DNA of 57,300 nt, filler included, from Streblomastix strix (Eukaryota): assembly GCA_008636045.1 (NCBI GenBank). It is 2 parts of 2 records of this genome, joined end to end, with 100 filler letters (N's around TTAATTAATTAA, not from the genome) between each part and the next. Parts side by side here need not be neighbours in the genome. Positions count along the whole stretch, not along the records: positions 1 to 28,631 come from SNRW01000119.1; 1 more part is not named here. One strand, written 5' to 3'. The stretch's first letter is position 1, and every line of letters starts with the position of its first letter. Positions 3,242 to 28,631 of the stretch are shown here, piece by piece. The notes below the pieces were generated by a model. That model made no database searches, was not told the DNA's origin, and was given only the letters and a program-made list of their open reading frames with translations. Both the position numbers and the translations under genes were made by a program.

Positions 3242-6200
3242 ATGGAAAAAAAGAGACTTATAGTTGTCTAGGCGTGCAATAGATGTAGAATTAAGAAAAT
3301 AAAATGTAACGGCGAATCTTAGTGTCAACAATGTAGGTCTAAAGGATTAACTTGTGAATATGAGCATAATCAAAATTAAAGTAACACAGCAAATGTAAGT
3401 TAAAATCAATAATTACAGTTTATCACTTAATCATCATTAGCAGAATTTCCAATAAATTCTCAAGTTTCACCTTATTATGATACAATTATTGGATTTTTAG
3501 ATTTAGGATAATCGAAATACTTGTATTTATAAGTTTTTTGTTAATTTATTAATCCTTTCTTCAACTTTTATGGCAATGATATCTCATTTTTCTAATGTTT
3601 TCCATTCAAAGCCAAGAAATTGCTTCTCCAGCTGAAAAATAACGATATTAATACCAAATTTAATCATTATGAGCATATGATGTTACACTATTTTGATGCT
3701 TTGCATCTATAATTTTACACTTTGATAGCATTTGCTGCTAAAATACTTGGACATAATTAAATGATGTAACTAGCTGTGCGATAAGCTCGTGCATATGCAA
3801 GTGGATTATTTGATGTAGCTGGCAATATTGCTGAACACGAAACTCTTGTTTCTCGCCGTACTAAAAGAATTATAAAACCAATTGAATTTATAATGAAGGA
3901 TATTAATGAACCAGTAGAAAACAATTCTGCTTTCATTGAAATATTTGATGATTATTTTAATTAGAAGTAATTAATGAATAAATAGAATAATGTCTCAAAG
4001 CCTCCATTAGAAAAGTTAGATGATAAACAAAGTAAGAAAATCCCAAATATTGTATCCCAGACTGAACAATCAAATTTTTCTAATCAAACAAACAAATTAA
4101 ATGAGAATGAGACCAATGAAAATAGAGAATAGCTTCAAAGCATTGCATACTAATTTCATCAAATAATTTATGGATCTCCAAATTTGAGGTTTCTTGTTAG
4201 AGCACTGATAGTTAGTTCAGCCACAACGCATGCATTAAAACGATCACAGGCAGAAATAATGGAATCTGTCTTCGTACTCGAATATGAACATGGATTGTAC
4301 ATGCTGTCAAAGTTTTTCTTTCTCTTCCCCAATTCTCACAGATCACAGCAACTTTCTTCAATACTTTCTGATATTCATAATTCAAATTACTGCTAAGAAA
4401 TTAATAGAACTGACAATTTTCCATTTCATCAGATGATTATGCATCCTGAGCTTTTAAACAAATCTCCGTAGCATGACTTCACTGCACTTTCATTTATATA
4501 ATGGATTAATGAAATTCAACTTAACAATCCATGACAAACAGATTTAATAAATTAGTCGGATGAGAAAGACAATATATGTTAATAATAAGGAAATGAAAAT
4601 GAATAATAAGATTATTTGAATGAAAGAGAAAAATTAATAAATGAATCAACTGAAAAAGCTGTAGATGATTCGGAGATCCTTAAAAAGAATTCTCTATTGA
4701 AACGTGATAATTTTATATGCATAATTTCAAATCTTCTATCAACGTTATTTTCAATTAATTCATTACTTAAAGAAAAAGAGAAAAAGATTATTTCAATTCC
4801 AAGATCAAATATTTTAACAAATATAAATCAAATTAGAATAAATAAGTTAAGCGGAACAGATGATAATCTCTCACATCGAGATTTATTCGTTCTTGGTTCA
4901 TTAGAATTAAGAAAACTTTATTGTCCAAATTGCATTTAACATAATAATCAAAACGATTTCAATCATTTCAAACAAACTATAAATGCCGATTAAATATCGT
5001 TGAATATTGATGAAGATATAGAGGAATAAAATACAATAAATTGCATTAATAATAATATAAATAATGAAAATAATAGAATTGATTAATTAAGAAATATAAG
5101 ATTAGAAAATAATAGCAACCAAATGAAGAAAAATAGAAAAGATAAAATGCAAAATCCTTTCTTTGAAATTTTATTTATTTTGCATATGAAAGATATTATG
5201 AAGAATCAATAAAGAAAGAAAGAAAACTTTATTTTACTTCCTTTATAATTTTAATCTTCATAATAATCAAATAATATAAATATTTCTAGTAATAATTAAT
5301 AGAATCGAATTCTAAATGAAAAAAGCAAAACAAATGAATCTGAATCATCTTTTGGCTTGAGCACTACTTCATCATTTTAAATTCTGTTTCAGGATTTGAA
5401 TCGTGACATTATATTTAAATAAATAATTTAAGAAGCCTGGGAATAATTAATATTTGACTGTAATAACATGAAAGACGTTATTTTGAAATAAATTAAGAAT
5501 AAAAGGAACTGTCAATTCGTTGTTTAGAACAAAAATATGAAAGATAGCAAAGATAATTAGATAGAAATTGAAGTTGATGTATCTGATAACAAAAACAATA
5601 ATAATTAAAAATAAGATCGCACAAATATAAGCTTGAAATATATGGACTTATTTTTTCCTTCAGTCATTACTGCTAAAAAAGCGGTTTCAAGAATGATGAA
5701 AATTAATTAAAATATATCTTCTTTATTGACATAATTAGATCAATTTGAAGAGAAATAAGAGAAAAATTAATAAAAATAACAAATTAAAAAATTACGTACT
5801 AAATCAAGTAATTAGTAATTTATTCCACTATTATAAAAATCCCAGATAGTTAATTACATTCAGACACTTAAATTTAAAAAGATTTAAATAATTATTAGAA
5901 ATTTTATGAAAACATAATTTGTACATCCGTCTTTTCAAAATATAAACAAAAATAAAAAATAAGAGAAATAAAGTTTAATGATCAAAGATAAAGACTTTAA
6001 ATCAAATGATCTAGAAAATAATCTATAGAATGGAGATTAAGATTAAACTAACAATTATCATTCATTCATGGATAGTGTAGAATAAATAAGTTAATTATTG
6101 CCTGATCATTTTTTAAGTCATTTCTCAACATATTCAGTCAGAGCAGCATATAAAGCATTTTAATATTCGCTGAATGGAAGTTTGCTCAGATAGAGAATAC

Positions 6201-9200
6201 CTTCAGCACTCATTTCTCTTCATCTTCTCCTATTTGGATCAACACCATTAACCTTGGTTCTGTTTAGTCCATAATTATTATATCACATGTTTCCTTTTGA
6301 TCTTTAAATATTAAATCAAATTTAAACTGTTTCTTTGATTAGAACTCTCGCATATTCAGAAAATTTGCTTGTAAGAGGAGGAGCTATAAGGAAAAGATCT
6401 ATTGTAAGTTTGATATAAGAAAATGAAAGTGAAGATAATGATTTGTATGATGGTGAAGATGAAACAGTTTAAAATATAAAAGTGGAAAATGAATTAAATC
6501 AAATAGATATGGAAGAATAAAATGATTTAAATATTGAACTCGAATCAAAGAACTCACTCTCTGGTGGTTCAATTGAGTATGTTTAAGAATAATAAAATAA
6601 TAAAATAAATATGGGTGAGTAGAAATCTATTAATTCTCCATAATCTTCTCATTCTTATCCATAAAAATAAAAAATAAATAATAACAGTTAAAAACATAAA
6701 AAAGATAATGAATTTTCGCCCATAAATAATATTGAAGATTTTTATTATAATATTATTAACAAAAACATTTCTACAATAGAAATTAATGATAATACAAAAG
6801 AAAACAACATTAATAAATAGAATTATAAAAGAAAAGTGTTGGAAACAATTTCACTATTAGATATTTCAGATAATTTACAAAATTAAAATGAAATTAATAT
6901 TGAATCCCAAGAAGAGTAGATAAATCATAGAGGAAGATCATAAAAAGGAAAAAGGAAAGAAAATAATTTAAATTAAACATAAAATGTATTTAAATGTAGT
7001 TGTGGTGAAATAGCTGATGGAATTAATATAGATTTATCTTGTCTGATTAAACCACATATTATATTTAAATAAACATCAAATTAAAATGCATAATCTTCTG
7101 ATTCATCTTCAACTTCTCAGTCTATTTTTTCTTAACCTTAATTATCTTCTTCAATAAAACCATAACAGAATTAAGATCCTTCTTGCATTTATGAAACTGA
7201 ATTTGACTTTTCTTCATTCAATTAAAATTCATTTTTAAATTAAAATAATGATTCTGGTCTTGAATTCATCAGAAATATTCATTTGCTAGAATAGGAATAG
7301 AAACCAAAACAAAATGAACATTTTTCTTAATAACAATTTTCATCTTCGCTTACTTCTTAATAGTAATCTTTAGAGTCTAATACTCAATTTTCACCTTCAT
7401 AAGATGTACGAGAATAAATATAACGATCTATTTAATAATACTTCTAAAAACATGGAAAATAAAGTTGGAATCTTTCTAATAATATATTGGCTGATCGTCT
7501 ATTGTAATATGTGATAGAATTCATACTTAGCGAAATTAAAAGTCGAAATAACAATCCTAATGATAAAGAAACTGATCTTAAGATAAAAACTTCTCACGGA
7601 TCAACGAATTTTCATCCACAAGGAACAAAGGAAACATTATAAAAAGCTGCAGGCGAAATTGTTTCAATTTTCAAATAATTTATTTAAGAAAACAAAATAA
7701 ATTCTTCTTCCTCATTTTCTTAATCATAATAAACATCCTCTTCATCAGATTTAAATTCATAATTACAAATAACATCTAATTAACTTCCTCCATCATTTCA
7801 ACCTTAATCCCTTTTAATACCTCCTCAAGAATAATAATCATAATTCATATTATATGTACTTCTACATAACATTCTATGCTCTTTCATATTTGTTTTCTTA
7901 CATCATTATAACTCGTCTATTATTATTATGAACTCTAATATATAAATTATAAAGAAAATATTTGATTAATTTGGAGTGCTTTATTTTATTAATGGACCAG
8001 CTTGGCTTTATATTTTAGGATTATGTATAATGATTTATGGATTCATACTTTCAAAAGATTAATAAGATGAAGAAGAAGATATATTGGAAGAAAACGAATG
8101 TAAATCAAATAATATTGAAAAAGAAATAAATATTGAATAATTGAAGAATGATAAAATTAATGATAAAGAGTAATAAAAAACTCAAACAAATAAATCTTCG
8201 AATCCAAAAACAAAATAGAATAATTCTTCATCACATCATGTATACCGTATTCTTGATGACAAATTGCTTTATGATTCTTTTCGCTAATATTTCATTCTTC
8301 TACAAATTATGAGACATTTCAAAGATGATACTTAGATGAATGCTTTATTTTGCAAACCATTCAACTTCTTTGCAGATTTATTTGCTACTTATGATGCAAC
8401 TAGTTTTATAGATCGAGATTCTGCTACTTCTGGAGAATTAAAAGATTTCACCATTCAAACAATGGACAACCCAATGTATAAATTTTAATAATAATAATTT
8501 TCTAATATTTCTTCACCATCTTCTTTATAATTTGACTCAACATAAAACCATTTAATTACTTCACCTTCTCAATAATTTCCCTCATTCCTTCCCCCAATAT
8601 TCATTCAAACAGTGAAATTCTTTCTTTAACACTGTTCACATTTCCCTTCACCTAGATCTTCAATTCCTTCTGAACAACCTGACCAATAAACGTCATCTTT
8701 TTTAAAATAAGGAGATTATGTCTCCATTCATCTAAGCTCTTCAGAAGTATTTGATGATATTATTGAAATCAATGATGATTGTATAGATGGATCAAAGGGA
8801 AATGATAAATCTGGTTTGAAAGGGATGAAAGATTAATAATAAATTGGTAAAGTTAAAAGAAATAGAAGTTAGATTTTACTTTCTTCTTCACATTCAAGGT
8901 AAATTATGTAAAATGATTCAGAGGGTATTAAACGAATCCGTTTTAATAACGATGAAAATGATCAATAACAATCAAATATTATGAAAAATGATTCAAGATT
9001 GAATTTTGGAGAGTTGATCAATTAACATGTAGGAATAAGAAGGAATAATTTATAGAGAGGAAACATTACTCGGACTCAAGGAAGAGGATCAGGGAAGGGA
9101 AAAGGAAAAGGAAAAGGAAAAGGGAAAGGAAAAATAAATGAGGAATAAGATTAAACATTATTAAATGATAACTCACATGCTAATATTTAAGATAATAAAC

Positions 9201-9904
9201 TTAATTCTGTATAGAATGGATAAATAAGCATAAATTAATCATTTCCATCAGCTGAATCAAATAACGAATCTTAACATCCAAATTTAAATCCAAATTCAAT
9301 TTAGTTTTCATAATTCGGATAATATTAATAAGATTAATCTTAATTTTAATAATTACAACTTCCTGCAAATCTTCCAAATCTTCAATATTAATAAAGTTAA
9401 CAAAAAATGGATAATCCCATAATATCTTCTTCATCAGACACTTCATATTTTGAGTAGGATAATATTTAGAATTAAAACCATCAAAATTATGAAAATAATA
9501 AATAATTTAATAATGATGATTCAAACGATTTTCTTGATGAATATGATCAATATGACAGTAGAAATGATGCAATAGAATAGAATATTAATTAAGAAATTTA
9601 AAAATTTCCTTACTTATTTAATAATGGTCTTTCTCCTAGTTCTATAGATGGTTAGAATATTCCTGAGAATGACAACATTTTTGGAAATTTTGATCAATAC
9701 TCAACAATGGACATGTAATTTAATTCTGATTTTGATTTTAATGCATCATTTGATTAAAGAAGTGATTTTTGGAACAGATTAGGAACTTCTGATATTCTGA
9801 ATGGATTGGGAATACATCCAAATCTGGTAAACAATAATTTCTCAACAGAAGAATTTGCAAATCTTCTTGAATCATCCCTTGAAATATTTGGGACTAATTT
9901 ATGA
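3242..9904 (+). CDS. Large Zn(II)2Cys6 (Gal4-type binuclear cluster) transcription factor, ~2220 codons, with one in-frame TGA at 4532-4534
   Basis: N-terminus MEKKRLIVVQACNRCRIKKIKCNGESQCQQCRSKGLTCEY fits C-x2-C-x6-C-x5-C-x2-C-x6-C. A helical middle-region-like segment follows (LQFYTLIAFAAKILG...ARAYASGLFD). One frame runs to TGA 9902-9904, ending in an acidic/aromatic tail. Confidence 0.8.
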
Positions 9905-11467
9905 ATATGATATTATAACATATTATAATATATAATTGAAATATAAATAATAACGTTTTTTTGTGAATTATTAATTAATTTATTATTTTTACAAGAATTT
10001 TTTTTATCATTCAAATTTGATTTATTTTTGTTTATTAAATAAAAAATTAAAAAAATTCAACAATTTTTCTTCTTAACAGTTACTATTAATATTAAAATGA
10101 AATATTATGAGCTATTTTGAAATTAATTTGTTATTTAGCATCTATAAAATCAATTAAAAATTAGGGTTATTCTTTTATTACTGAAAAAGAATTAATCCAT
10201 ATTAATTTTATTTTCTTGAATTATTGGAGATCTTATTAACATAGTATAATTTTAAATAATAATTTTAATATAGTATGATTATAGTAATAAAATGTAATAA
10301 AATTTTTAAATAATTAATATATGATAAAATTTTTATTAAACAATTAATGGTCGAAAAAAGTAAAAATGAAGTGAAAAATAGTTAAATGAATCAATCCAAA
10401 AATAATACACAAATATCAAATATAAATAAATATGTTTAATACACCGGAACATATGAAAATAAAATTGGGAAAATTCAAATGATTTAGAAATAAGAAAAAT
10501 AAAATTGAGAAAATTAGAAAATTAATTAAATTGCAATAATAATAAATAATAATACAAATATTTGGTAATATATACAAAATTAATACAAATATAATTAAAT
10601 TAACATAAACTAAAAGTGCAAATCTATATAGTTCCTAAGAATTTTAAATTTAAAAATTTTAAAAAAATAAAATAAGTATCTTATGACAAATAGTCATTCA
10701 GTTTTGTTCAATTTTATCGTAATTAAATTTAAATAATATGTTAGTATAAATTTTAATAAATTTAAATTGCTTTGAATGTAATGTCTGCTTAAAAGTAAAT
10801 ATTAATAATTAAAATTAAAAATCAGCATAAAAATCAACTTCTGAATATTTAACTTCGTAAAAAATATTTGAATTAAAATAGCTAGACAAAGAGAGCATAA
10901 TTCTTACTAGAAACTGAAAGATTTACAAAGAAGAAATGAAGTACAAATGAAAGGATAACTTAATTGTAAAAAATAAACCGATCTTAACTATATATCAGGA
11001 TATATCAGTTATATTTTACATGTACAAAAAATATTATTTCCATTTTTTATATTTATTATTACATAAATGATTCTTGTAGTGAATTAAAATGATTATTCGA
11101 CTAAATCTATTTTCTGCACTCTTCTCAGTTCAAAAATTATACCTGTAATTATTTTATTATAGTTATATTTATTATCTAGCATATTTTTATTCTTCACTAT
11201 TTATATATCAAAAATATATGCAGAATAAACCTATTATAATTCTTAACAAATAAACAAGGCGTCAAACTCTAGCCTAATTGAATATATTCTAGATATTATA
11301 TGAATATTTTGTATTTGTCTGTATTTAACAAAATCCATTCATTTTTTGCCAATAAAATTGCTGATATCGAACTATTTATTGTATAATCTTTTTTCTTTAT
11401 TTATTACTCTTAAAATAATTGTTTAATATCTTTTTTCTTTTTTATTCTTTGAAAATAATTTCATAGA

Positions 11468-11896: not shown

Positions 11897-11927
11897 AATA
11901 TCACAATTTGTAATTAATAAAATATAT

Positions 11928-12415
11928 ATCATTATTTGGATGAAATTAGATTGTAATCTAAGCATAAAAGAGAAAGAATTAGTTTACTTTCGATTTCTTT
12001 CGTTTCACATGCACTTTTTTGCATTATATACATGTGAATATCTTAATATTCAACCTTTGCCATCAGCAACTCATCAAATCATACTATCAGAATAACGAAA
12101 GAAAAAATGGAAATACTCGCCGTGCAGCGATATTCATATAGCTATATATATTATTGAACTCTGTAAATCCATTCTTATGATCATATTTTAATTCAAACAT
12201 TTAATCACGAATCTGTTCGTTTGTGAATTAGCTCTGAATATTTCTTGATAAAAAATGCCATCAGCACACCTACATTAATTGTATTATTATAATTTAATAT
12301 ATTTTCATATTATTGTTTTTATATCTCGACCTAATCACCCACAAACTTACTATTTATAAAACCATTCAATCGAGCTATTTTTTCTATAAATAATCTTTTT
12401 TAAATTTCTCAACTA
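11928..12415 (+). repeat. ~488-bp intergenic repeat, copy 1 (upstream of SLY1)
   Basis: Near-identical and collinear with 15383-15870. Confidence 0.9.
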
Positions 12416-12501
12416 GAATGTAAAATCATCTACGTATAATATTATTATTTTATTATTCCTTTTCATCTTTTTTTATTTTTCATAAAATACTATAATTAGA
12501 A

Positions 12502-15242
12502 ATGTTTTCTAGATTCTCTGTGAAAGTAAAATAAATAGGTATTTTTATTTCTTTTCTTTTTTTTAATATTGCGTTAATTCTATATAAATTTTTTTCAATT
12601 AGAGGCCTTAAAATCAATTTTGAGACTTAACAAAGATCCCTTGGAAGAAGCTAAAAAAGCCAATGCTGATGTCATTGAAATTTGGAAGGTGCTGATATAT
12701 GACTAATTTGCCAAGACAATTGTGTCCCCACTTCTGAGTACTAATTCACTTAGATCACTCGGTGTCACACTTCTTCTTGATCTCACTTCTAGACGCCAAC
12801 CTGTACCATCTGTTCCTGTTATTTATATATTCAAACCAACTGATGAGAATCTAAATCTAATTTATTAGGTTTGTTATTATTATTATTATTATTATTTAAT
12901 TTATTAAGTTATTTAAAATTAAATCCAGGATGCAAAAGAAAATCTTTATGATTATATGCATCTTAACTTCACTTCTAGCATTAGAACAGAAACACTTCAA
13001 TCATTTGCAGGTAAATGTGCTAAGGATCGAGTAGATTCAAAGATTGTCAAAGTTTATGAACACTTCCTGGACTTCGTTTCATATGAACATAATCTATTTA
13101 GTCTTTGGCATGAAAATAGCTTTAATAAATTGAACTCTTAGGATTGTATGATATAATATTTGTATTTAATACAGTTTAATTAATAATTTCATTGTTATAT
13201 TTGCATTTATTAGCCTCAAGGAGAGAATATATGCAGAAAACAGCTGCATAACTTGCAAATGTCTTATATACACTCGGAACAATGCCAATTATCAAATATT
13301 CAGAATCAGAGAATGCATAATATTTGTCTAAGTATCTTGCTGAAGCTCTTAGAAGTGAATCATCACCATTTTCAATTTTGTAGAAATAAGGAAGTTCATC
13401 AATTATTTCATCTTCATCATCTGCACCTCGCTTATCAAATGCATACACTCAAATGGCAATGCCTTCTTTCTAAGATTATGAAAGACCGCTTTTAATTATA
13501 ATTGAAAGATCTGCAGATATTGTAACAGCATTATAGCACCATTGGACATATATGGATTTAATCTCTGATTTATTAGATTATTAACCAGGAAGAATAAACT
13601 ATACTAAGAAAGTATAAACATAATCATCTTCATCATCTTCATCAACTACATCTCAAACTACTAAGCAACATTTTGATGTAAGTTTCGATGATGATTTCTT
13701 TTGGGTTGAGAACTTCAATGCTCCATTTGATACAATTGGACCACAAGTAACAAATTTAGTTTCTAAATATACAGTTGATGCAGAAAGAATTAAAGGATAA
13801 ATAATGAATGGAATTGGAGATGGAGAAAGTAATGAAGGAATGGGAATTGGTGGAGCCTTGGATCCACTTACAGTATTATCATTATATTATATATATATAT
13901 ATAATATATATTATATATATATTATTATATATTATATATATATTCTTTATTTGAATATATATTATTATATATTATTATATATTATTATATATTAATATAT
14001 ATTAATATATATTATATATATTATATATATATTATATTATATATTAATATATATTATATATATTATTTTATGTTATATATATATTATTATATATTATTAT
14101 ATATGAATATTTTATTTGATTAGGCTACAAAGAGTGTATTGGATAAACATGTGCTTATAGCAACATAACTAAATGAAATAGTAAAGAAAAGAAGCATTGA
14201 TATATACTCAGCATATGAAGAAGAACTTAGATCTGGGAATTCAAATGGAAGAATATTTGATATTCTCAATGCAGACAAAGCATATTCAGATTAAGCACCA
14301 TTAATTGAGAAAGAAGGCTAATAAAGCAGCAGTCCATAAGAATAACCAAATTAAGGAACACTTGCAGATATGATTAGGCTTCTTTCTGTTGCATATTTGA
14401 GTCCATAACCAGTTATATAGAGAAGTAACAGAGATGGAGAGAATGAATCATGGACATCTCAGATTGATGGAATGGAATAGAAATTGAAGAGAAATGGAGC
14501 TCCTTATATTCGTTCGTATGAGTATCTGAAGAGGTATTGTAATGGATGTATATATAAGAATATAAATATATTCAAAGTTGTTATTATACATATGAATATT
14601 ATTTATTATTTATTTTGTAACAATAAGATTTAAAAATAGAAATGCAGATAGACCTGAAAGCTCAGGTAAAATATTCAAGAATATGACAGAGGTAATAAAA
14701 TTATTTATTTTAGTATTCATTCATATTTTATTTACATATACATATATGAATTATTTATACAATAACAGTTATTTTCTTCGTCAATTAAATTGCCATATGT
14801 TGAAAGATTAGTTGAAGATGTTATGGATGCTAAATAGTCAGATCTTGCAGATAGTCTCATAACTATTGATCCAAAACAGGTATTTATATAATAATAAAAG
14901 ACAAATAATAATTATATATATTTATTTCATTTCACATATTCTATTCATATCAGAGTGAAATTCCAATCTCAAGTGCAGTCAGTCGTGATTCAACAATGAA
15001 AGTGAAAAGCAGACGTGCTATAGTATTTATCATTGGTGGAGCAACTATACACGAGTATCTGTTACTCGCAGACTACGCAAAGGTATTTTATACTTTTTCT
15101 TTTATAAAAGTTCAAATTCTATTACATAATTATATCAAACAATTGTTAGCGCACTTCAAGAGAGATTATTTTAGGAAGCACTGAAATATTAACTCCTTTA
15201 TCCTTCCTCTAGCAACTACAGCTTTTATAGCAATAGCAATGA
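12502..15242 (+). CDS. SLY1: Sec1/Munc18 family protein Sly1 (SCFD1), multi-exon
   Basis: Motifs WKVLIYDQFAKTIVSPLL...LRSLGVTLLL, RPLLIIIERSADIVTALQHHWTY and AIVFIIGGATIHEY...GSTEILTP. GT-AG introns include 12539-12602 and 13873-14123. Confidence 0.92.
13873..14123 (+). repeat. TA/TTA microsatellite-like SLY1 intron
   Basis: About 250 bp of almost pure A/T short repeats between a GT donor and an AG acceptor; the flanking exons join as DPLT|ATKSVLDKH. Confidence 0.8.
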
Positions 15243-15382
15243 AGTCTTTGCTTATTATAAAATATAAATGTCTTATAAAAATTACCAGATTAAAATAAAA
15301 AATTCAAATTTTATAAAAAAATTTTAAATAGACATTTATTGGTTGTAATTTTATTATTTTTATGTAAATAATTGAATTTTAA

Positions 15383-15870
15383 ATCATTATTTGGTTGAAA
15401 TTAGATTGTAATCTAAGCATAAAAGAGAAAGAATTAGTTTATTTTCGATTCTTTTTGTTTCACATTTACCTTTTTGCATTATATACATGAGAAAATATTA
15501 ATATTTAATTTTTGCCATCAGCAACTCATCAAATCATACTATCAGAATAACGAAAGAAAAAATGGAAATACTCACCGTGCAGCTATATTCATATAACTGT
15601 ATATATTATTGAACTCTGTAAATCCATTCTTATGATCATATTTTAATCCAAACATTTAATCACGAATCTGTTCGTTTGTGAATTAGCTCTGAATATTTCT
15701 TGATAAAAAATGCCATCAGCACACACACATCAATTGTATTATTATAATTTAATATTTTTTCATATTATTGTTTTTATATCTCGACCTAATCACCCACAAA
15801 CTTACTATTTATAAAACCATTCAATCGAGCTATTTTTTCTATAAATAATCTTTCTTAAATATCTCAACTA
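15383..15870 (+). repeat. ~488-bp intergenic repeat, copy 2 (upstream of UPF1)
   Basis: Near-identical to 11928-12415, same orientation. Confidence 0.9.
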
Positions 15871-15926
15871 AAATAAATTATTTTTGTGTAATTTATTTTT
15901 TTTTATATACTTGTAAATCATTCAGA

Positions 15927-18900
15927 ATGAACCCTGATCTGGAAGAGAACGTATCTATTGCGACAACGGACTATGATGACCTCGCAACACAAGATACGGA
16001 CAACTTCCGCATGATTGATGGTGATGAAGATGAAGATGAAACAGGAGCATGCAGGTTTGCTTCATTTCTATTTATTATATATTTATTTTATACTATATTA
16101 TGTTATTCAGTTACTGTGGTGTGAGATAACCCCAGTGCATTGTGCAATGCAAGATATGCAAGAAATGGTTTTGCAATGGAAAAGGTGGGAATAGTGGATC
16201 TCATATTATACTACATATGGTATGATCAAAACACAAAGAAATACAGCTCCATCCATCCAGTCCACTTGGTGATGCTAAACTTGAGTGCTATAATTGTGGG
16301 AATTGTAATTGTTTTGTCCTTGGATTCATATCTGCTAAAAGTGAATCTGTAGTTATTCTACTCTGTAGGTATATTACTGATTAATAGTCATTTGAATGAA
16401 TGATAATAATTTTCTTCTTTTATTTATTCTATTATTAAATGTAGAGATCATTTAGCAAGTGGGTCTAAGGATCCAAACTGGGATTTATCACAATGGGAAG
16501 CATTGATATAAGAAAGAGCATTTGTATCATGGCTTGTAGCTGTACCTGAGAAAGAAGATGAAGTTAAATGCAAATCTGTTTCTGTGTCAAAGATTGCTAG
16601 ATTAGAGGACATGTGGTAGAGAGCATCTGCTGTTGCTGCTGCAGAGAAAGATATTTCATCTTCAAGTTCTGGATCACGTAATACTCAATCTAATATTCCA
16701 GGAAGTATAATAAGTAAAGTTGGAGAATATGGATAATATGAAGATATGGGAGAACCAATTAAAGTACCATTACATTTCAGTACAAAGGATGATGATGATT
16801 ATTTCAATATATTTGCTCCTCTTATTGCACTTGAGGCTGAATATGACAGAAAGACAAAAGAAAGTCAAACAAGGAATGGAGTTAATGTCAGATGGGAAAA
16901 GGGACTCAATAAGAAAATGTAGGCTTGTTTCTTGTTCCCAAAAGAAGGATCTGATTTCAAACTACTTACTGGAGATGAATTGAAGTTGTCTCATGGTGAT
17001 ACTGGACGTAATGATGAGTTTCAATGCATTGGACATGTTATTAGGATGAATACTGCAAGTGTGATATTACTTAATAATAATAATATATATATATATATAT
17101 ATATTAATTTTACTTATTATTATTATTCTATAGGTGAAGAAATAAGTCTAGAATTACGTAGTAACCAAGGTATCAATACTCAAATAACTACAGATTATTC
17201 TGTCACATTTGTTTGGAAATCAACATCCTTTGATAGAATGACAAGTGCATTACATACATTTACTAATAATTAAGGATGTATGTCCCCTTTCTTAAGAGCA
17301 TTAATATTAGGAGATAAAATGTTGACTGCTGCTGTATCATAAGTATATTCAATGTCTATTCCATCAACATCTGGAGAAGGATAAAGTAGCAGTAGTTCAA
17401 ATATTAGTGGTTCTTTATCTCCTGATGAAGTAATACAAACAATTGAATAAGCTTATATGGAAGCAACTGGTTGGAAGATGCCTAAATTAAACTCAAAACT
17501 TTCTGCTCCTAATCTTCCTGAATTGAACCATTCTTAGAAGAATGCAGTGTAAAAGTATGCTCAAATACAAAAACATTGGTTATATTCTATTCTTTTTAAT
17601 ATATTTATTTTTAATTATTTTTAATCATTTTATTTGATATACTAATGATTAAAATAATTCATCATAAACCAAGTGTGCTCTAAAGACCAATTTCTCTGAT
17701 TCAAGGTCCACCAGGAACTGGGAAAACTGTGACATCAGCAACAATTGTGTATAATATGGTACAGCTCAGATAAGGATAGATACTTGTATGTGCACCTTCT
17801 AATGTAGCTGTTGATCATCTCACAGAAAAGATTGCAGTAACTGGAGTTCGTGTTGTGAGATTGTGCGCTAAAAGTAGAGAAGCTGTATAATCTTCTGTTG
17901 AGAAATATACATTGCATCGTTTGATGGAGACAATATAAACAACAGAAGCAGACAAATTTCGTAAGTTGCAAAGATTGAGAGACGAATATGGAGAATTAGA
18001 TGAATCAGATTAAAGATTATTTATTTAATTGAGATAAAGAATAGAAAAAGATATATTATCCAAATGTGATGTTATTTGCTGCACTGCTTGTGGTGCTGGT
18101 GATCCTCGTTTGTAGCATTTCAAGTTTGGTCTTGTATTGATGGATGAATCAACACAAGCAACAGAAGCAGAATGTTTGATATGTGCTGTTAAAGGAGCTA
18201 GACATCTTGTGCTTGTTGGAGATCATTGTTAGCTTGGCCCAGTTATAATGTGCAAGAAAGCATCTAAAGCAGGACTCACTCAATCTCTATTTGAACGTCT
18301 TGTATTCCTTGGGATAAGACCAATCAGATTACAAGTGTAGTATAGAATGCATCCTCAACTATCTACATTTCCATCAGTAATGTTCTATGAAGGTTCATTA
18401 TAGAATGGAGTTACAGCAGCAGAGAGAACAGTGAGATCAACAATTTAAGGAAGTAAAGATGGAGAACAAGAAAGAAATAAAGATGTATTTCCATGGCCCC
18501 AACCTGACTGTCCAATGATGTTTCTGAATTCAAATGCAATTGAGGAGATATCATCATCTGGGACTTCATATCTCAATAGAACTGAAGCTGAGAATGCAGA
18601 GAAGATTGTTACTCATTTATTGTAGAATGGAGTTAATCCAAATGCAATTGGAGTCATCGCTCCATATGAAGGATAATGCACTTATATTAGGGCTGTATTC
18701 TAGAGAGTAACTGGACTTGGAATTGGAGTTGGATAATAAATAGGAATAATAACAATAGGTGGATAATAAAGTGGGAAGAAAATGAGCTAATCATCTTCTA
18801 ATTCCAGAGGATTAACATCTGAAATGTATCATGAAGTAGAAATAGCGAGTGTTGATGCATTTCAAGGAAGAGAGAAAGATTATATTATTCTCAGTTGCGT

Positions 18901-20557
18901 CAGATCAAATGAAAAATAAGGAATTGGATTTCTCAATGATCCTCGAAGATTGAATGTTGCATTGACCAGAGCAAGACATGGATTAATTGTATTGGGGAAT
19001 GCAAGAGTACTGTCTAAAGAAGCTCTCTGGAATAATCTTCTTGTTCACTTCTAATAGCATCATTGCCTTGTAGAAGGATTCCTTAACAATCTGAGACCAG
19101 CAAATATTCATTTCCAACCTCCTCGCAAAATAGTTCCCTTTCTTCGTTATTTACCCCCAGAAACACTTGTTGATATTAAATAAGCTGGAGTAAGGACAGT
19201 TAGTGCAGCTGCAAGGTTCTAAGGAGGTATGTTGGGAATGACAGCTGTTACAACTAATGCTTCATTATTAGGATAATAATAATAAGGAAGAGATTGGAAT
19301 CAATAAATTGGATAATAAGGAAAGAATAAAGGAAAAGGGAAGAATAGAGGATTTGGAAAGGGAGATTAAGTAATAGATAATAATTAATAGAGAGGAATGG
19401 GTGTTGAATATCCAGGATCATCTTAGATGATTGGAGGAAGTTGGAATATGAATGATTCTAATTAATAGTCTTAATCTTCATCTTCTTCTTCTTCTTCTTC
19501 TTCTTCTTCAAATGAAGAATAAAATGAATAAAGAAACGATTAGTGGATTTCTTCCTAAGATTCTGTTGCAGCAGCTGCATTGGAAGCCATTTCAGTAGGA
19601 AGGGATAAAGCAAATGGGTTACATGCATCTCTTGGAAGTACAATGCCAATGAATATAACAAATTAAACACAAACTATGTCTGCTATATCTTTATTAACAC
19701 CTTGGATATAGACTCCAATAACTGGAATACCAAATAGTTAAAGTGGAATTGGAGGAAGAAGAATATACTAATCAAATAAATAGAATAAAAGAGGATAAGA
19801 TAATAAGAATATGGTTTATATTGGATCTGCATCATAAAATAAAGAATAATCATAATCATAGGCAGATTCAGATAAATTGAATGAGAAAACAACATCTCAT
19901 TAAGAAAAAGATGAAAATGAAGCTGACTGGGAAAAGGAAGTTGAATAAGAAAGAAAAGAGACTCCAAAAGATCAATAAGAAAAGATTTCTTCAAATCCTG
20001 AAGATAATTAGAAAGAGAAAGAGAAAGAAAAAGATCAATTGGATAAATAGAAAGAAGAAAGTGAAGAAGAAACAAAGAAATCAGAAGAAGAAGGAAAAGA
20101 GAAGAAGAAGAAGAAATTGAAGACAAAAGAAGGAAAAGAAAAGAAAGAGAAGAAAGAAAAGAAAGAGAAGAAGGAAAAGAAAGAAAAGAATAAAGAAAAG
20201 AAATAGAAAGATGATACAATAAAGACAAATGATGATGAATAAAAGATATTTGGTGCATCAGCAGAAATAATTACTTCATTGGATGGATAAACTGAAGTGG
20301 ACAGTCATTATCCTCCATTTACAAGTTTCTATGACATGGACTTCTCATTTGCTTAGAATTAACTTCCTATTTAATCTACATCCTAAACTTCTTCATCTTC
20401 TTCATCATCTTCTTCTTAATAATCATCAAATCCTTTACTTCATTCCGACTTTGGAAGTCTTCCTGACATTGATTTGGGGCCACTTGATAAACTTGAAGAT
20501 ATTGGAGGGAATCTAGATACAGATATTGGTAATGAATATGACTTCGGCATGGGATGA
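15927..20557 (+). CDS. UPF1: UPF1/NAM7 nonsense-mediated decay RNA helicase (5 exons) with an in-frame TGA at 16223-16225 and a long charged C-terminal tail
   Basis: CH domain (ACSYCG...KKWFCNG...[21 protein letters not shown]) and helicase motifs [55 protein letters not shown]. Introns are 16055-16110, 16369-16444, ~17059-17132 and 17555-17673. Confidence 0.95.
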
Positions 20558-21129
20558 TTTTAAGATTTGCAGTTTGACAGATTAATAACAACATATTAAA
20601 CCAATTTGTACTGGAACTGTGTAATTATTTCATTGCAACAAAGAGGATTGTAGCAAACTAAATCTTTCATGCAATACACTATACATCGGCATATACAGAT
20701 CTATATTGCTTGTACTTTCTGTTCAAATAAACAAGGAATTTATAGAGGTTTTATTTTTCTTGACCACAAATTATTATTATTTATTTATTAGTTTTAATAT
20801 GATATATTAGAGTACTAACATGTGAAAAAACTTTGGAATTAATTTTGTGGATAATATTTGATTTCAAGGTTTTTTCTTTCAAAATCAAATCATTTCGAAA
20901 TCATCTCTAAAATTTAATTTGTTACTCATATAATATTATTTAAATAATCAAAATTTTCAACAAATTCTTTGCAATCTCCTTCAAACCACCATTCAAAGAA
21001 AAAGAACGATTTTTTCAATAAATTTAATTGCAAAATCAAAAATATATTAAGTGTAATATAAGGAAATATTAAATATTTTGCATTTAACTTATTATATATT
21101 TAAAATTATTTTTTATTTATCTAGTATTG

Positions 21130-24100
21130 ATGCTATCAACAAAAACTTCTGGAAATCCTTGGATTGTGGTTGTTTGCTGTGACCACAGAATCCGCTCGGA
21201 GTTTGAAAAGGCTGTAGAAAGTGGAATAAAGCTTCGAGAGAAACTTATATCAGGCGCAAAATTAGTAAGTCAGGTATGAAATCACTATGATCCTAAATTT
21301 TTTGAAATATCATATTATTTTTTTTTGATAGGCTATCCAAAGCGATTCACCAGAAAATTAACATGTGCAGATTGAAGCATAGAAAGGAGCCATATCATTT
21401 GATACAATAATAGAATTGATGATAAAAAAGATCATTGATATTAAAGAAAACCGAGATGAACCTGAATAGATTGAAGTTGATGAAAAAGCTAAAGGTAAAG
21501 GATTGGATAAAAAAGATAAGAAAGGATTGAAAAAAGACGACAAAATATAACAAAAGAAAGAAGATAAACTGCAATTAAAGAAGGAAGATAAAACTTAACT
21601 TAAAAAAGATGAAAAATCTCCTGTAAAGAAAGATGATAAACCTCAACTGAAGAAAGATGATAAATAATCAGGAAAAAGAGAAGAAAGATCAAATTCTGCA
21701 ATAGGAAAATAAAAATCAACGAAAAATAAAGCAAATAAAGATGCTCTATAAGATTAAAAAGATTAGAATATGGAAAAACAATATTCAATGGATCCAGATG
21801 ATGCACCTGATATCCCATAATATCCGCAGAAATTCCTTCTTATAACAGGAATACCAGATGATTTATCTGCATTATTATAATTTCACACTAAGTTATAGGA
21901 ATATGATTTACGTGTTAATGCAATAATTAATATCAGATCTGTGCCTTTTATCCCAGATTCATTTATGAAGCTTCTCCTAAGATCATAAACTAAACTACTA
22001 TTTCCTTCACCTTAAATGCTTGGGATTAAATAACAAGAAATTGGATTGAGTAATCAAATTGTAGAAAAAGAAAAACAATCAAAAGTTAAAGACTAATAAA
22101 AACAATAATAAGTAAGTGTTGTAAAGAAGAAAGATAAAGATAAAGATAAAGAAAAAAAAGATTTTATATTTGAAGAAGGATTAGAATCTCTTGGTCCAAA
22201 CTTCAGTTATTAATTATCTAATGCAGGAATTACAGCAATGTAAGATGTTATTTAATAATAATAAATATTATATTAAAGAATATTAAATAATGATAATTAA
22301 TAAAATTCATTTGAACCTCCTCCAGATTTGGAAGTATTTAATGAACTTGAATAAACTGACATAAGTAGAACACATTTATCATTATTTGATTAAGTGTGTC
22401 TTGTAAGAAGAATATTAATTGATGGTCCAACTGCCATTTTAAGAGGAATAATTACAATTGAAATTCTAGGAGGAGTTCCATTTCATTTAAATATTCATGC
22501 TTAACTTCCTCCTGATCAAACATAAGTTAATTTATCTACAATTATATAAAACTAATCTTAATAATAACCAAGTATATAATAATCACCAATGGTATCTCCT
22601 AAAGGTGATCCTAAATAATCTAAGAAATAATAGACGTAACTTAGATCAGGATCTTCTCATGGGAGTACAACTGAATAAAAATAAGATATAATCGAATTAC
22701 CAGATGCATTTGCTCTTATTAGTTAATCCGCTCCTAAAATTCCAGATCTCCCAAAACCAACTCTTATTCCATTAACATACTCAAAAGCATAAGAATCATC
22801 TCCACTCAAAACAATTCAAAAAGAAATTCTCTTTCTGAATCCACCTCCATTATATCCATCTACATATCCAGGATAATCTCCTTATTCTACTTTAAGTCCT
22901 TATTCTCCAGATAATCATGAACCATCTTAATATACTTTAGCATCTGTTTCATCAAATTCATTTCATAATATAGAATAAATAGCAATTCAATTCTAAGGTT
23001 TAACTTCTACACTTCCTGATTCTCCTTATTCACTTCAAAAGATTACTCCAAATTAACCTGTATTATGGTCAATACCATAAAATAACTTCTTTATTCCACC
23101 TCCTATACTGTATATACCTAAGGATGGTATTACTATATTAAGAGAGATACATTTATCAATAGCTTAGATTGCTGCAAGATAAAGCTTATATTAATTATGG
23201 ATTGAAGGTGCTTCTGTAGAAAGCAATACAATTAATAATAAATAAGAAAATGAATAAAATGATTAAATAAATAATCTCGATAATTATTTAAGATCTTCTT
23301 TTGATTAATAATAAATCTTAAGTAAAGAGTAAAGACAGTCATTAATTTAATAAAGTAGAATAAATAGAGTAACTTGAGGAGTACCATATGAATAATATTT
23401 AGTTGTTTCAGATTATTCTAAATTACCTAAAAGTGATTAGAGAATGGCATAAAGACTTGAATAAATAAGATTAAGAGATCCAATTGCAAGATAAGAAAGA
23501 ATAAACAAAGATAAGAGAGATAAAGATGCATTAATTGCTGCATTAATTGCTGAAGAAGAATCATTACGTGCTGGTTTAGATTAGAAAGGAAAGAAGAAAG
23601 GATAAAATATATTAAATTAGAAAGATAAAGATAAAGATAAAGAATTGGAGAAATAAAAAGAATTGGAGAAATAGAAACAGAAATAATAATAATTAGAGAA
23701 AGAGAAGGATAAAGACGTTGAAATAATAAAAGAATAACAAACTGAGAAAGAGAAAACAAAAAAGAAAAGCAAATCACCTCCAAGAAAAGGAAAAGATGGA
23801 GAAAAATCACCAAATAGAGGAACATTAAGAAGAAGCATGAAAGATTAATAATAAGATTAATAATCACCAAATTGAGGAACATTAAGAAGAAGCATGAAAG
23901 ATTAATAATAAAATTAGTAATAAGAACAATCTCTTTTAGGAAGAACATCTTTGAATGATAAATTTGAATCTAAAAATGAATAAATAATATTTTAAGAATA
24001 AAGTGAAGATAAAAGTGAAAATGATTAAATAATATAAAATGAAGAAACTGGAGATGAAATTGATGAAGAGGAATTAATGAGAATTGAACTTATAAGAAGA

Positions 24101-27100
24101 AGAGCAGAAAATGCAATAGAAGAAAATTAGTTAGATGGTACATTAGCTGTAGATGCAAGAAGATATAAAAGAACATTGGATAGATTAGTTATAATAATAA
24201 ACCCAGAAGCTGCATTTGCAACTGCATTTGCTTCTAAAGCAGATTAATAAAAACAAAGAGATTCTATATTTGGAGTATAATAATAAGGAAGTAGTGGAAG
24301 TGGATAATAATAATAATCATAAGGAGATATAATACCAATAATACCTCAATTGCCTGCACATGGGTTTAATATTTGGTTTGGCTTATATTAAACTCCAATT
24401 AAACTAGATGATGATATTAATAAAGGAACAACATCAAGAACTGTAACTGCATAAGAAAGCAGAAGAAATACAGCAAATTCAATAAATAGAAAGAAATTTG
24501 GAAGAAGTTAAAGGCCAGATTCTTCATTATCTAACAGACCCCAAACAGCGAATTCATAGACATCTTAAACTCCATCTTTATAATCATTCACTTCTTAAAT
24601 ATAGAATAATAATAGATAAAATAATTTATAAAGAAAGTAAATATCTTCATCAAATAAAGCAATTAATTAATCTAATCTCTCTCTTGCAACTCTGGCTCAT
24701 AGTTCTTCACACACAAACAGTAATGAATAAGCAATATTACATTCAATTGATATTGGTCTTGTTGAATCTCTTATTCTTCATGCAATGATTGACTAAATAT
24801 AATTTGAAGCGTAACTTAGAGGAAAGGTTAAAGTTCAACAACGTAAAATATAAAAGAGACCCACTTCAAGTTCTTCATAGACTTAATCATCTATTAATCT
24901 AGTTCAGGGAAACAAAGATAGTTAAAATCCTCCTGTTAATTAAAGCGTTGAAAAAGTGAAAAAAGATCATAAAAAGGGTTAGGCAGAAAAGCGTCATTCA
25001 GATAAATAGGAAATAGAAGATTAGAAATCAGCAGAAGAAAATGCATAAGCTGAATTTGATGCTGCATTACTTGCTGAAGCAGAAGCATTGGAAGCAGCAA
25101 TTGTAGAAGCAGAGAATGAAAGAAATGAATAAATAGAATAATAAAGGAAAGAAGATGAACAAAGACTTTTAGAAGGAGCAATTGAATCTTCATTTAAAGA
25201 ACTTCTTCGTCTTGGAATAAATAAAGGGAAGAGAGATTTTATTGAAGAAAGATTTCAAGAATTCAAAAGAAGTCATCTTATTTAATAGTAATAGTCAATA
25301 TAATAAACAATTGTAGGATAATCAAAGAGCGAAGAACTAACTCAATTCAATTAACCACAATAAGATTTATAATAAAAATCTTATTCTTCTTCTATAGTGT
25401 AATAATTTTCATCAAATTAATAAGTTTCATAACTAATGCCTTAAATTACATAACCAACTTATGTATAATAACTTTCTCCACAAACTTAAATATCTCAATA
25501 ATTACAACTTAGAGCAATAAGTCAACCAGGAAAGTTGAAGAAAACATATTCTACGCTGTCCTCTAAACCAACTATGCAAGTTTAAAGAGCAAAAACAATG
25601 GATTAGGCATTTTAAGGATATCCAATTAAATAAATTGAAGTAAGAGCAAAAGGCCCAGTTTCACTTAGGGATTTCATTTTAAATAAATTAGGTATTATAG
25701 ATTTTGTTACGCCATAGGCTTAAATGTCTTTGAATTAGATATAATCATCTTCTTCAACCAAATTAACAAATGGATCTTAACCAGAACAAAATAAATTAGG
25801 AGAATAAGATAAAAAATAATTAGGAACTTAATAAGGATAATCATAAGTATAGAATAAAGGAGTTGATTTAGTTACTAAACAAAGCAATGAAAATACTATA
25901 GGTAAATTAAGATTATAAAATGAATAATAGCCAATTACATCAGCTAGAAATGACGACTCTTAAAAGAGTACATTTGTTTCGAAAGTAATTTCAGGAGATG
26001 GATATAATTCAGCTAGAAATGGTGGTAATCCAGCTTAAGTAGTGAAAAAGACTCCATTAATTGCATAACCATAATTAATGGGTGTCTTATCTAATTAATC
26101 TTAACTTAAATAAATTGGTTCTCCTCCAACACCTTATCCTCCTTTAAGAAGACCAGGAATGTTAAAAAGACAATAATCAACAATTGATACTAGTTCAAAG
26201 AATAAATTAAAAGGAATGACAAGAATGGATGATGCTATTAATGGTTAAAGTGTTTAGAATAGTACTGTTAACTTACAAGATATTGTTTAGTCCGTATCTG
26301 AAGAAGTTCGTAATCCTTCGCTATCATATTAATCTGCAAGTATTCAAGACCTAACAAAAGCTGCAAATAATGTTCTCAAAAGACCTCGATCTCATATAAA
26401 TCCTCAATTGATGTAACTTGTTTCTATTCATATTCGTACACTTGGGATAATACCATCTGTATTAACATTATCAACATAAACAACATTATCACTAATGTAT
26501 GGAACCTTGTTCATATCTCCTTCTTTTCAAATAGCTGGAACATAAGGATCAGGAAGTGGTGGATCAAATTAATAAGATTAAAAAGAATCTGGAGGAATTG
26601 GGTTTGCATTTCATTTTGGAGGGAGTGGAGCAAGTAATGAATAATTTAATATAATGTAATAGTATGCACCTCATATTCATATCATGTAGCATATGCTAGA
26701 TCTTCCTACTAAAGTACCAACTCTATGTCCTTAACCAGCTTCACCATCAGAATAAACTGCATTTATTCTTTCATTCTTAACACCAACACCATAAATTGTA
26801 ATTAATACACGATCTTAATCATTAAAAATTATACAAAGAGCTGAGTAATCATTAATAACATTATTAAATCAAGCGAATAATTCTGATAGTAGGGATCAAA
26901 AAGGAAAGAAACAATTTTCAGGTTAAGAATTTGATTTATCTAAATAATTATAAAAATCATAATTATCACATATGGAAAATATAGATGAATAAGAAGAGAA
27001 AGGATTGGAAAAGAATGATATTAATTAATAATTACAAAAATTATAAGGAAGTCCAAATTTTGATAGATCATAATCACCTGGAATTACATCATTACTCTCA

Positions 27101-28631
27101 CCAAATAGCCCATAAATAGATAGTCCACCAAGATAAATGGCAAGAAGATAAAGTATTGTATAAAGAAAGTAATAATAAGCATATTTTGAAAGAAATAAAT
27201 TAGCTATTGGTCAAAACTCCGATATATGCAAAGTAGTTTAGGAGCCTGTTGTCAAATTTTCAACAGTCAATACAGTTGTTGCATTTCCTACTGGTACTGT
27301 TGTAACATTATAATAAATGAAGAAATAATAACTTAATGAGAATGGATAACAACAACAATAATAATAATAATAATAATAATAATAAGGAGAAGGAGCAAAT
27401 GCTTCTACTGAAACATAACCTCAGTTACAACCTTCTCAAACATAAATGAGAAATGTATAAACAAGAATATTAGGAGCTCCAACTATTACTATTAATAATA
27501 TAATGCAAATGATTGGTTATCCAGTCTCAATTGGATAATTCTTTAATTAAGATCCATCAAAACTTCTTTCTTCACTTATACCACAGAATACTGGACTTCC
27601 TTCACATGCCCTATTTCCAATGATATTTCCACTTACTCTCCATATAGAATTATTTGTAAATGCTCTTTTTAGATTCTTCTTCCCATCATCTGCAAAAAGC
27701 ATAACAAAGGCCATGCAATCACTTGGATTAAATTCAAGTAAATAGAGTTCTTAAATGGGTAAAATGACTGGAATGGATGGAAGTACAATATCTCTTGTTG
27801 GAGGGATTAATAGGTAAAATACAACATTCACTTTCAATCGTAGTAGTAATTAAAGTGCATATAGCTCTAAATTATCATCTGCTATTATGAGTCCATCAGA
27901 TACTGCACTATCAAGTAGAGCAACAGATTCTAAATTAGTTAAATATGATACACAATCTGCTGCATCTAAATTATTAGTATAAATGCTGTTCTAAATGATT
28001 GGAGGTGGTCGTTAAGGGGATGATCATCAGTTGCTCTATGGAAATTATAGGACTTAGGGAATTATTTTTGATACATTCAGTTAAGTAAATTCTTCACTTT
28101 CATTTCATAAGATAGCAATTCAATATTTTAATGCTATTAAAGCAAGAGTATAATCATAATGGGTTGGATTATCTGATGTTGATTATAGTACAATTGTTAA
28201 CACGTAAAAGAATGGATAAAAACTCTCACTCCAATATAATCCTTTATTACCTTCTATTTCTCCATCTTTCTTATAGAGATATAGTGCATAACATTAAACA
28301 ATGTCTTCATTTAAAGATTCAATTATAGCTATGGTTAGTGCAATTCAATTAGCATAATAAGAATAGAAAACAACCACACTTGTGTAATAAAAACTATATC
28401 CAAACAGTACAAATCCAAACGATTTCTTAACCACTTTAGATGTTGAAGGCTCATTTGCTGAATCTAAGGATTTCTTTAGTAGAGTAGGAGATGAAGTATT
28501 AAGAGATGTTATGTCTGATGATGATTCACTATGTAGAATACTTGTATGCGCTTAATTCTCTGAAATGTTGGGATCAGAACCAGATTCTTCTGGGTTTCTA
28601 TACATTTCATCTAATGCACCAACTGGGGGAG
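21130..28631 (+). CDS. Very large SPAG17/PF6-like (axonemal central-pair) protein, 3'-truncated by the contig end, with an in-frame TGA at 23375-23377
   Basis: After intron 21274-21331, one frame runs to the gap. The N-terminal layout (IIELMIKKIIDIK, K/D/E-rich linker, DPDDAPD...KFLLITGIP...RVNAIINI) resembles SPAG17 as I recall it. The assignment is tentative. Confidence 0.6.

Follow-up and report, generated by a model that had tools for sequence, protein, structure and literature searches.

GENES IN THE WINDOW

The window, the whole 57 300-nt stretch of Streblomastix strix DNA that we analysed, consists of two contigs joined by an artificial N-linker (28632–28731), whose flanks are not genomic neighbours. 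The organism is a protist of the termite gut, and the named proteins closest to those of the window are from oxymonads (S. strix and Monocercomonoides exilis). The left contig supplied a set of five genes, ~7700 codons in all, for codon counts. A Gln-rich frame, open at its 5′ end and with no Pfam match, occupies 2–2881 (+; 959 codons; a terminal TGA at 2879–2881 and none internally). It is followed by a Zn2Cys6-domain gene at 3242–9904 (+; Pfam Zn_clus, 4.6e-07), 2220 codons in one frame with a terminal TGA at 9902–9904. A SLY1/Sec1-family gene (12502–15242, +; Pfam Sec1), assembled with four introns shown by cDNA and four predicted ones, has ~656 codons, no internal TGA, and ends at TGA 15240–15242.

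The gene for the RNA helicase UPF1/NAM7 (15927–20557, +) has five coding exons and 1434 codons, ends with TGA at 20555–20557, and matches UPF1_Zn_bind (3.6e-36), UPF1_1B and AAA_11/12 in Pfam. Its introns lie at 16055–16110, 16369–16444, 17059–17133 and 17555–17673 according to the cDNA contigs X2 and X3, three of the joints being seen in the contigs and the fourth deduced from breaks between aligned pieces. Last comes a large uncharacterised gene (21329–28631, +), open to the contig end, where it runs into the linker, its terminus lying outside the contig. The initial annotation called it SPAG17-like, a label without support from Pfam, which gave no match; the only relatives found were two S. 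strix hypothetical proteins (P0127 and P0128). The right contig, both ends of which carry an identical 127-nt sequence, contains a decayed CYFIP/Sra1 copy at 52590–57179 on the minus strand (Pfam FragX_IP, 5.6e-37).

Contigs from other sequencing runs (X1–X4) were compared with the window over 14500–19900, a range with one of the four internal TGAs described below, that at 16223. They are assembled contigs, not raw reads, so that minor alleles or partial editing would stay invisible in them. X1 to X3 come from one study; X1 is DNA, possibly from the same source as the window, and X2 and X3 were recognised as cDNA by their splicing. Among the X4 pieces listed none spans 16223 (there are 151 further pieces). 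Scans for related DNA gave 0 and 0 matches in two passes over a viral contig collection, and 0 followed by two chance bacterial matches (L001 and L002) in metagenome contigs. ARAGORN, run on the whole window, found no tRNA gene.

CODON MEANING AND TERMINATION

TAA and TAG encode Gln in this oxymonad, as the initial annotation had read them. At UPF1 columns conserved in at least 90% of homologues, Gln is the commonest residue for both TAA (4 of 11) and TAG (5 of 7). In contigs of other samples, TAA and CAA replace one another within the gene, as do CAG and TAG. The reading of TGA as the sole terminator of complete genes also held, all four genes with visible ends finishing on it (2879, 9902, 15240 and 20555). 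SLY1 shows TGA acting as a stop, its cDNA contigs containing no further stop in frame. Those contigs end at 15265 and 15278, 23 and 36 nt past the TGA, with the next in-frame TGA at ~15396; they come from one study and do not mark RNA ends.

Internal TGAs number four in the ~7700 codons of the left-contig genes (0.052%). Three of them (4532, 16223 and 23375) had been noticed previously, while the fourth, at 23873, had been overlooked. TGA stands at none of 33 Trp codons and replaces none of 63 Cys codons in the five genes; the caveat originally attached to the Trp reading, that conserved Trp sites are TGG, extends to all 15 Trp codons of UPF1 and all five of SLY1. Since A-ending codons predominate in the other purine boxes of these genes, the absence of TGA among the 33 Trp codons counts against Trp.

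The evidence on the residue comes from two sites on the left contig, UPF1 16223 and the duplicate at 23873, both of them Arg. Arg codons make up 13% of the single-base neighbours of TGA, so that two Arg sites out of two would arise by chance with a probability of ~0.017. TAA is the commonest such neighbour (548 of 1558), but Gln stands at neither of the informative sites and was rejected. Selenocysteine was likewise rejected, the informative sites being Arg columns and not Cys columns.

THE INTERNAL TGA OF UPF1

The spliced UPF1 frame has a single internal TGA in its 1434 codons, at codon 81 (16223–16225, +) within the zinc-binding CH domain. The gene does stay open after this codon, as first described, but only once four introns are removed. 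Among 115 aligned homologues, mostly from plants, 114 have Arg in this column. Human UPF1 has Arg at the site and yeast UPF1 has Leu, and given the yeast residue the position may tolerate residues other than Arg.

That transcripts splice the TGAs out, named in the initial annotation as a refuting condition, was examined for UPF1. The DNA contig X1 has no difference from the window over 15824–16356, leaving the TGA unchanged. The X2 and X3 cDNA pieces run unbroken across 16108–16363, the span that includes the TGA, which rules out its removal by splicing. X2, a spliced contig from another sample, is 1.7% divergent from the window; no change at the TGA occurs among its differences in the 40 of 124 rows listed. 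The exon concerned has three differences in X2, two of which are among those listed, and six in X3, one of which is listed. From the listed differences, the TGA appears to be kept in the X2 cDNA.

Downstream of the TGA, the listed X2 differences fall in 21 codons, 17 of them synonymous and 4 non-synonymous (P = 2e-8 at a neutral expectation of 78% and 6e-6 at one of 68%). Because these differences are mostly synonymous, ribosomes likely translate UPF1 past the TGA. Re-initiation at the next Met, Met185, is countered by the interval between the TGA and that codon, where the listed differences are 5 synonymous and 0 non-synonymous (P 0.0005–0.003). UPF1 is the one gene of the window in which we found an internal UGA in a conserved reading frame under purifying selection. 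The data support TGA occurring both inside a live gene and as a terminator, and to that extent the dual sense/stop role first proposed for it stands, although not with the Trp meaning it was given.

INTERNAL TGAs IN THE OTHER GENES

The TGA of the Zn2Cys6 gene (4532–4534, +) is in frame, and no homologue aligned across it. Read with table 6, this frame contains a single TGA over its 2220 codons, the other two frames containing 43 and 124. Similarly, the large gene (21329–28630) has 2 over 2434 codons, and its other two frames have 25 and 96. With so many fewer TGAs than the alternative frames, neither open frame is a product of chance. Around 4532 the sole frame-keeping GT..AG candidate is 75% AT, and the best intron candidate around the first TGA of the large gene (23375–23377, +, in frame) is 80% AT, compared with 83–91% for the eight introns shown by cDNA. 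The open stretch that follows 23375 is 165 codons long, up to the second internal TGA at 23873, and not the thousands of bases once ascribed to every one of these sites. No homologue among 373 candidates spans 23375, and the two S. strix relatives stop short or fail to align across it.

The second TGA of the large gene lies in a tandem duplication with a period of 57 nt (23807–23917, +; 3 mismatches in 54 nt). AGA (Arg) at 23816–23818 in the first copy pairs with TGA at 23873–23875 in the second, this being one of the three mismatches between the copies. Six predicted fragments bounded by internal TGAs had no exact match in the protein collection.

A DECAYED COPY AS INTERNAL CONTROL

The CYFIP copy, whose nearest named homologue is from M. 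exilis (45%), carries 15 TGAs in frame over 955 mapped codons, with only one or two frame changes. Of the 12 TGAs that could be aligned, one lies opposite Arg, whereas 20 of its 49 Arg codons do (Fisher P = 0.044); the remaining TGAs lie opposite Trp, Gly, Ser and other residues, with one at a Trp column. The copy retains 232 of the 421 residues on which two homologues agree, and its replacements have a mean BLOSUM62 score of −0.20, while those of the two homologues average +0.33 and +0.53. The mixture of residues at its TGAs may be explained as decay of the copy. Since a decayed copy can hold 15 TGAs with few frameshifts, long open frames alone prove little, and the initial argument from frameshift-free genes is weakened to that degree. 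A mariner copy has a TGA together with frame changes, and a duplicated family on the right contig has one TGG/TGA pair.

INTERPRETATION

We lean modestly toward a code in which TGA is dual, Arg internally and stop at gene ends, with TAA and TAG as Gln and no dedicated stop codon. In UPF1, ribosomes would pass the internal TGA and insert Arg. We predict an eRF1 that recognises UGA alone and is efficient only close to the poly(A) tail; away from the tail, an Arg tRNA would outcompete it at UGA. That tRNA would have anticodon UCG or UCU and mispair at the first position, or else a mutated anticodon, UCA. The change would parallel that of Gln, UAR being to CAR as UGA is to CGA, and one rule, acceptance of U in place of C in the first position of the codon, could cover all three reassignments. 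To the wider statement, that a Streblomastix-like oxymonad has no dedicated stop, reads UAA/UAG as Gln and UGA as Arg internally, with stop only at gene ends, and that it is the first in Metamonada to do so, its UGA = Arg having arisen independently, we give an even chance.

A different account of the two Arg sites is that a mix of near-cognate tRNAs (Trp, Cys and Arg) decodes internal TGA with no single new meaning, nonsense changes being tolerated where one of these residues fits. Arg makes up 205 of the 295 Trp, Cys or Arg neighbours of TGA, so that under such a mix two Arg sites out of two would have a probability of ~0.48, and the Leu of yeast UPF1 at the site also favours tolerance. We nevertheless consider this account unlikely. 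At UGA, yeast incorporates Trp in 86% of cases, Cys in 7% and Arg in 7% (PMC4967479), and a mostly-Trp mix would place Trp in the UPF1 column that is otherwise almost invariably Arg; TGA is moreover absent from the Trp and Cys codons of all five genes. Trp as the settled meaning within genes and stop where they end, the scheme of tables 27/28, was the guess of the initial annotation. It has a known precedent at a similar frequency, and the TGG/TGA pair and the TGA at a CYFIP Trp column would suit it, but these cases are confined to decayed copies, and the Trp codon counts and both informative sites speak against it; we regard it as the least probable of the readings weighed here.

The decayed copies bear on plain table 6, under which every TGA is a stop, the internal ones having arisen by nonsense mutation in copies that are dead or redundant; the genome would be one with many decaying duplicates. 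The CYFIP copy, with its TGAs at mixed residues and little more than half of the shared residues kept, and the mariner copy fit this pattern, and it could still hold for the Zn2Cys6 gene and the large gene. It would, however, make three of five neighbouring genes dead while they keep frames of 1400–2400 codons, and UPF1, whose codon 81 is an internal TGA in a live gene, is spliced in two samples and varies mostly synonymously 3′ of the TGA. We judge plain table 6 distinctly improbable. Arg together with purifying selection could also be had without a new code if some transcripts were edited from U to C (UGA to CGA) or if a minor TGA-free allele were the source of the protein. Contigs drop minor variants, and the state of X3 at the site falls outside the differences listed; the X2 consensus, on the other hand, appears to keep T. 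We know of no U-to-C editing of such a kind in metamonads, and hold this explanation to be very improbable.

RELATION TO KNOWN CODES

Codes without a dedicated stop have been described from a few ciliates, trypanosomatids and one syndinean, with UGA as Trp. Tables 27/28, originally offered as the model for this genome, do resemble the dual Arg/stop reading in part: Condylostoma magnum and Parduczia sp. have UAR as Gln, UGA as both sense and stop, and essential genes that contain internal UGA and evolve under purifying selection (PMC4967479). There, UGA = Trp was established by mass spectrometry and ribosome profiling, whereas our case is built from sequence and gives Trp no support. The codes of tables 27/28 are further marked by termination that depends on nearness to the poly(A) tail and by 3′ UTRs of very small length. 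The nearest known code is instead a Gln/Gln/Arg code that Chen et al. 2023 (PMC10089648) claim for spirotrichs, among them the ciliates Uronychia setigera and Stylonychia lemnae: TAA/TAG as Gln, as here, and rare internal TGA at Arg columns, with a predicted reading equal to ours. In the present data Arg stands at 2 of 2 informative sites of the left-contig genes and at 1 of 12 in the decayed CYFIP copy. The ciliate claim came from a computational scan, its Arg without a protein-level test in the text concerned, while here there are two sites and selection on UPF1; in a metamonad, such a code would have arisen independently. UGA = Arg has so far been only a computational claim, in ciliates. 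In eukaryotes with the standard code, near-cognate read-through of UGA inserts Arg, Cys or Trp (bioRxiv 10.1101/2023.06.19.543857), Arg as here being one of the three; such read-through is weak and mostly Trp, whereas the TGA at UPF1 codon 81 would need efficient decoding.

For S. strix itself, Trznadel et al. 2026 (PMC13002328) give TAR = Gln, table 6, a code derived from tubulins, and the text on the code does not mention internal TGA; here TGA occurs in a live gene. A literature search confined to main texts turned up no oxymonad with a reported internal TGA; an earlier mention is possible. An independent metamonad case would test whether loss of UAR as stops predisposes to loss of UGA, and whether mis-pairing at the first codon position is a route of general importance. 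If the reading is true, a recoded stop sits in the gene of the nonsense-decay helicase UPF1 itself, which bears on how nonsense-mediated decay handles internal stops. Table 6 gene models of the lineage would then be split or truncated at TGA, which would affect the case for lost genes in oxymonads. The claim can be tested directly on single-cell transcriptomes that already exist. The usage of internal UGA, 0.052% here, compares with 0.042% in C. magnum and 0.120% in Parduczia (Swart et al. 2016, PMC4967479).

Internal and terminal TGA codons

The left contig carries five genes, all on the plus strand: a 5′-open Gln-rich frame, a Zn2Cys6 gene (3242-9904), SLY1 (12502-15242), UPF1 (15927-20557) and a large unnamed gene (21329-28631). 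The in-frame TGAs that the initial annotation reported at 4532, 16223 and 23375 are all present, and a fourth, which it overlooked, is at 23873. In the Zn2Cys6 and large genes, each of the two other frames on the strand contains between 25 and 124 TGAs, versus one or two in the coding frame. The internal frequency is four in ~7700 codons of five genes (0.052%); Swart et al. (PMC4967479) put internal UGA usage at 0.042% in C. magnum and 0.120% in Parduczia. TGA also closes all four genes with visible ends, as had been claimed. At SLY1 the following in-frame TGA lies 51 codons downstream, and neither cDNA contig reaches it: they end at 15265 and 15278, 23 and 36 nt past the stop codon, which is no more than a faint indication that 3′ UTRs are short. 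The internal TGAs are a real feature.

TAA and TAG as Gln

Codon counts in four genes are TAA 548, TAG 103, CAA 151 and CAG 29. Where UPF1 columns reach 90% conservation or more across 120 homologues, Gln is the residue most often opposite TAA (4/11), TAG (5/7) and CAA (9/10). These columns, together with TAA/CAA and CAG/TAG swaps between the window and contigs of other samples, bear out the earlier reading of both codons as Gln, which agrees with the code given for Streblomastix in PMC13002328.

The UPF1 TGA in DNA and transcripts

Four sequencing runs, all as assembled contigs, were compared with the window over 14500-19900; 40 of the 124 differences between runs and window are listed. The DNA run X1 has no differences over 15824-16356 and is possibly the source of the window itself. 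Over 16327-16458 it has two contigs, one identical to the window and one with six differences, which suggests two haplotypes. Runs X2 and X3 are cDNA, because their contigs skip the introns at GT..AG and open with a loose end that we take to be a template-switch adapter. They differ from the window at 51/3075 (1.7%) and 47/3082 (1.5%) letters, respectively. Both cross the TGA-bearing exon without a break, which rules out removal of the TGA by splicing.

The state of the TGA in cDNA rests on X2, for which two of three differences in this exon are listed (16186 and 16285; one of six for X3, whose private differences fall outside the listed rows). The listed X2 differences run in order up to 18238, each at least 43 letters from the piece end, and position 16223 is ~116 letters from that end, so a change there should appear among them. 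From this layout we infer that X2 keeps the TGA.

Splicing yields a UPF1 frame of 1434 codons whose sole internal TGA is codon 81 (16223-16225), within the zinc-binding domain and with conserved residues on either side. Downstream of it, X2 differences hit 21 codons, 17 synonymously and four non-synonymously, counted among 28 listed coding differences and leaving out 25 further X2 differences in the last exon (P = 2e-8 versus a neutral 78% non-synonymous; P = 6e-6 at 68%). If the TGA is common to the window and X2, selection acted after it arose. From the TGA up to Met185, the first Met after it, the listed differences are five synonymous and none non-synonymous, so re-initiation at that Met was rejected. 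Translation through the UPF1 TGA is likely.

A stop upstream of introns normally triggers nonsense-mediated decay. Three introns follow the TGA in UPF1, the nonsense-decay helicase's own gene; speculatively, this TGA could serve as a feedback sensor of read-through.

Residue at internal TGAs and alternative explanations

The UPF1 TGA column has Arg in 114 of 115 aligned homologues, mostly plants (5 of the 120 have no alignment there); human has Arg and yeast Leu. TGA 23873 is in a 57-nt tandem duplicate whose partner copy has AGA. Of the codons one base away from TGA, 13% are Arg codons, giving a chance of ~0.017 for Arg at both sites, or roughly 0.04 allowing for fast C-to-T change. Sites 4532 and 23375 aligned to no homologue in protein searches. 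On balance we lean towards a dual Arg/stop TGA. The initial annotation had proposed Trp, which we consider very unlikely: all 33 Trp codons are TGG despite the prevalence of A-ending codons elsewhere (AAA/AAG 432/129, GAA/GAG 348/69), and Arg is what the UPF1 column and the partner copy of 23873 have. Cys is likewise unlikely because all 63 Cys codons are TGY. Under mixed Trp/Cys/Arg read-through most TGA sites would also be expected at Arg positions, since 205 of the 295 Trp, Cys and Arg neighbours are Arg codons; the two sites do not tell it apart from Arg alone, and we hold it to be unlikely. Editing, or a hidden allele, is very improbable.

That the internal TGAs are nonsense in dead copies is a doubtful explanation, the UPF1 gene being spliced and having the 17:4 synonymous excess past its TGA. 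What speaks for it is the CYFIP/Sra1 copy on the minus strand (52590-57179), which seems to have nonsense TGAs in a long retained frame. Part of its exons was mapped, giving 16 TGAs in 955 codons, 15 of them without one at a frame change; a frame change is near 53030. For twelve TGAs each of the two close homologues has an aligned residue (KD, QG, RR, SG, NS, TS, VL, IP, WW, GG, SA and QM); Arg is found in 1/12, versus 20/49 where the copy has an Arg codon (P = 0.044). This copy retains 232/421 residues common to both homologues and has lost 8/50 invariant in five; the mean BLOSUM62 of replacements is -0.20, versus +0.33 and +0.53 for the homologues. Judged from these alignments the copy looks decayed, so plain nonsense mutation is the best reading of its TGAs; were it alive, Arg as a single meaning would fail. 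That it changes frame so seldom could reflect a scarcity of indels in this genome, or a frame held under relaxed selection. Since a dead gene can hold a 1.9-kb frame here, the long open frames first offered as evidence carry less weight for the Zn2Cys6 and large genes.

Proposed working and known codes

Read-through with Arg would work if eRF1 recognised only UGA and required a nearby poly(A) tail, UGA elsewhere in the message being decoded by an Arg tRNA. Poly(A)-proximity termination has been proposed for Condylostoma (PMC4967479). Arg is among the residues known to be inserted at UGA by read-through, via first-base wobble, although yeast Arg tRNAs are weak inducers (bioRxiv 10.1101/2023.06.19.543857), so one would expect the tRNA or the release factor to be altered. 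In its working such a code would resemble those of Condylostoma and karyorelicts, which are context-dependent, except in their defining trait, UGA as Trp, for which the genes here give no support. It would match the Gln/Gln/Arg code claimed for seven spirotrichs (Chen et al. 2023, PMC10089648). An oxymonad study of 2026, in its accessible part, gives TAR (TAA and TAG) as Gln only, from tubulins (PMC13002328), and our literature search, to which subscription papers and supplements were closed, turned up no description of oxymonad genes with an internal TGA. If true, the supergroup is new for a known sort of code.

Other features of the window

The window has a GC content of 26%, and an N-linker (28632-28731) joins its two contigs. 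Protein likeness points to an oxymonad: the closest named relative of CYFIP is a Monocercomonoides exilis protein (45%), and the other nearest named relatives are a pair of Streblomastix strix proteins (49% and 56%). Termite-gut runs are among those carrying this DNA.

A 549-nt repeat, 92% identical between copies, lies directly upstream of SLY1 (11909-12456) and UPF1 (15363-15906), and housekeeping genes may draw on it for their promoter, their first exon and an intron in the 5′ UTR. Leaders of the X2 and X3 cDNAs are similar to its start and joined to the UPF1 start codon.

Besides the CYFIP copy, the right contig contains transposase remnants and duplicated families. Its identical 127-nt ends (28732-28858 and 57174-57300) are probably an assembly overlap. 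A 2.6-kb multi-exon family has two copies, 86% identical (28907-31554 and 49102-51755). Indels are few over the opening 1.3 kb, and ~ten codons from the C-terminal end TGG in one copy pairs with TGA in the other, which counts against Arg. A mariner-type transposase remnant (~39450-40560, plus strand; Pfam Transposase_1, DDE_3) contains a single in-frame TGA, and its frame appears to change at either end.
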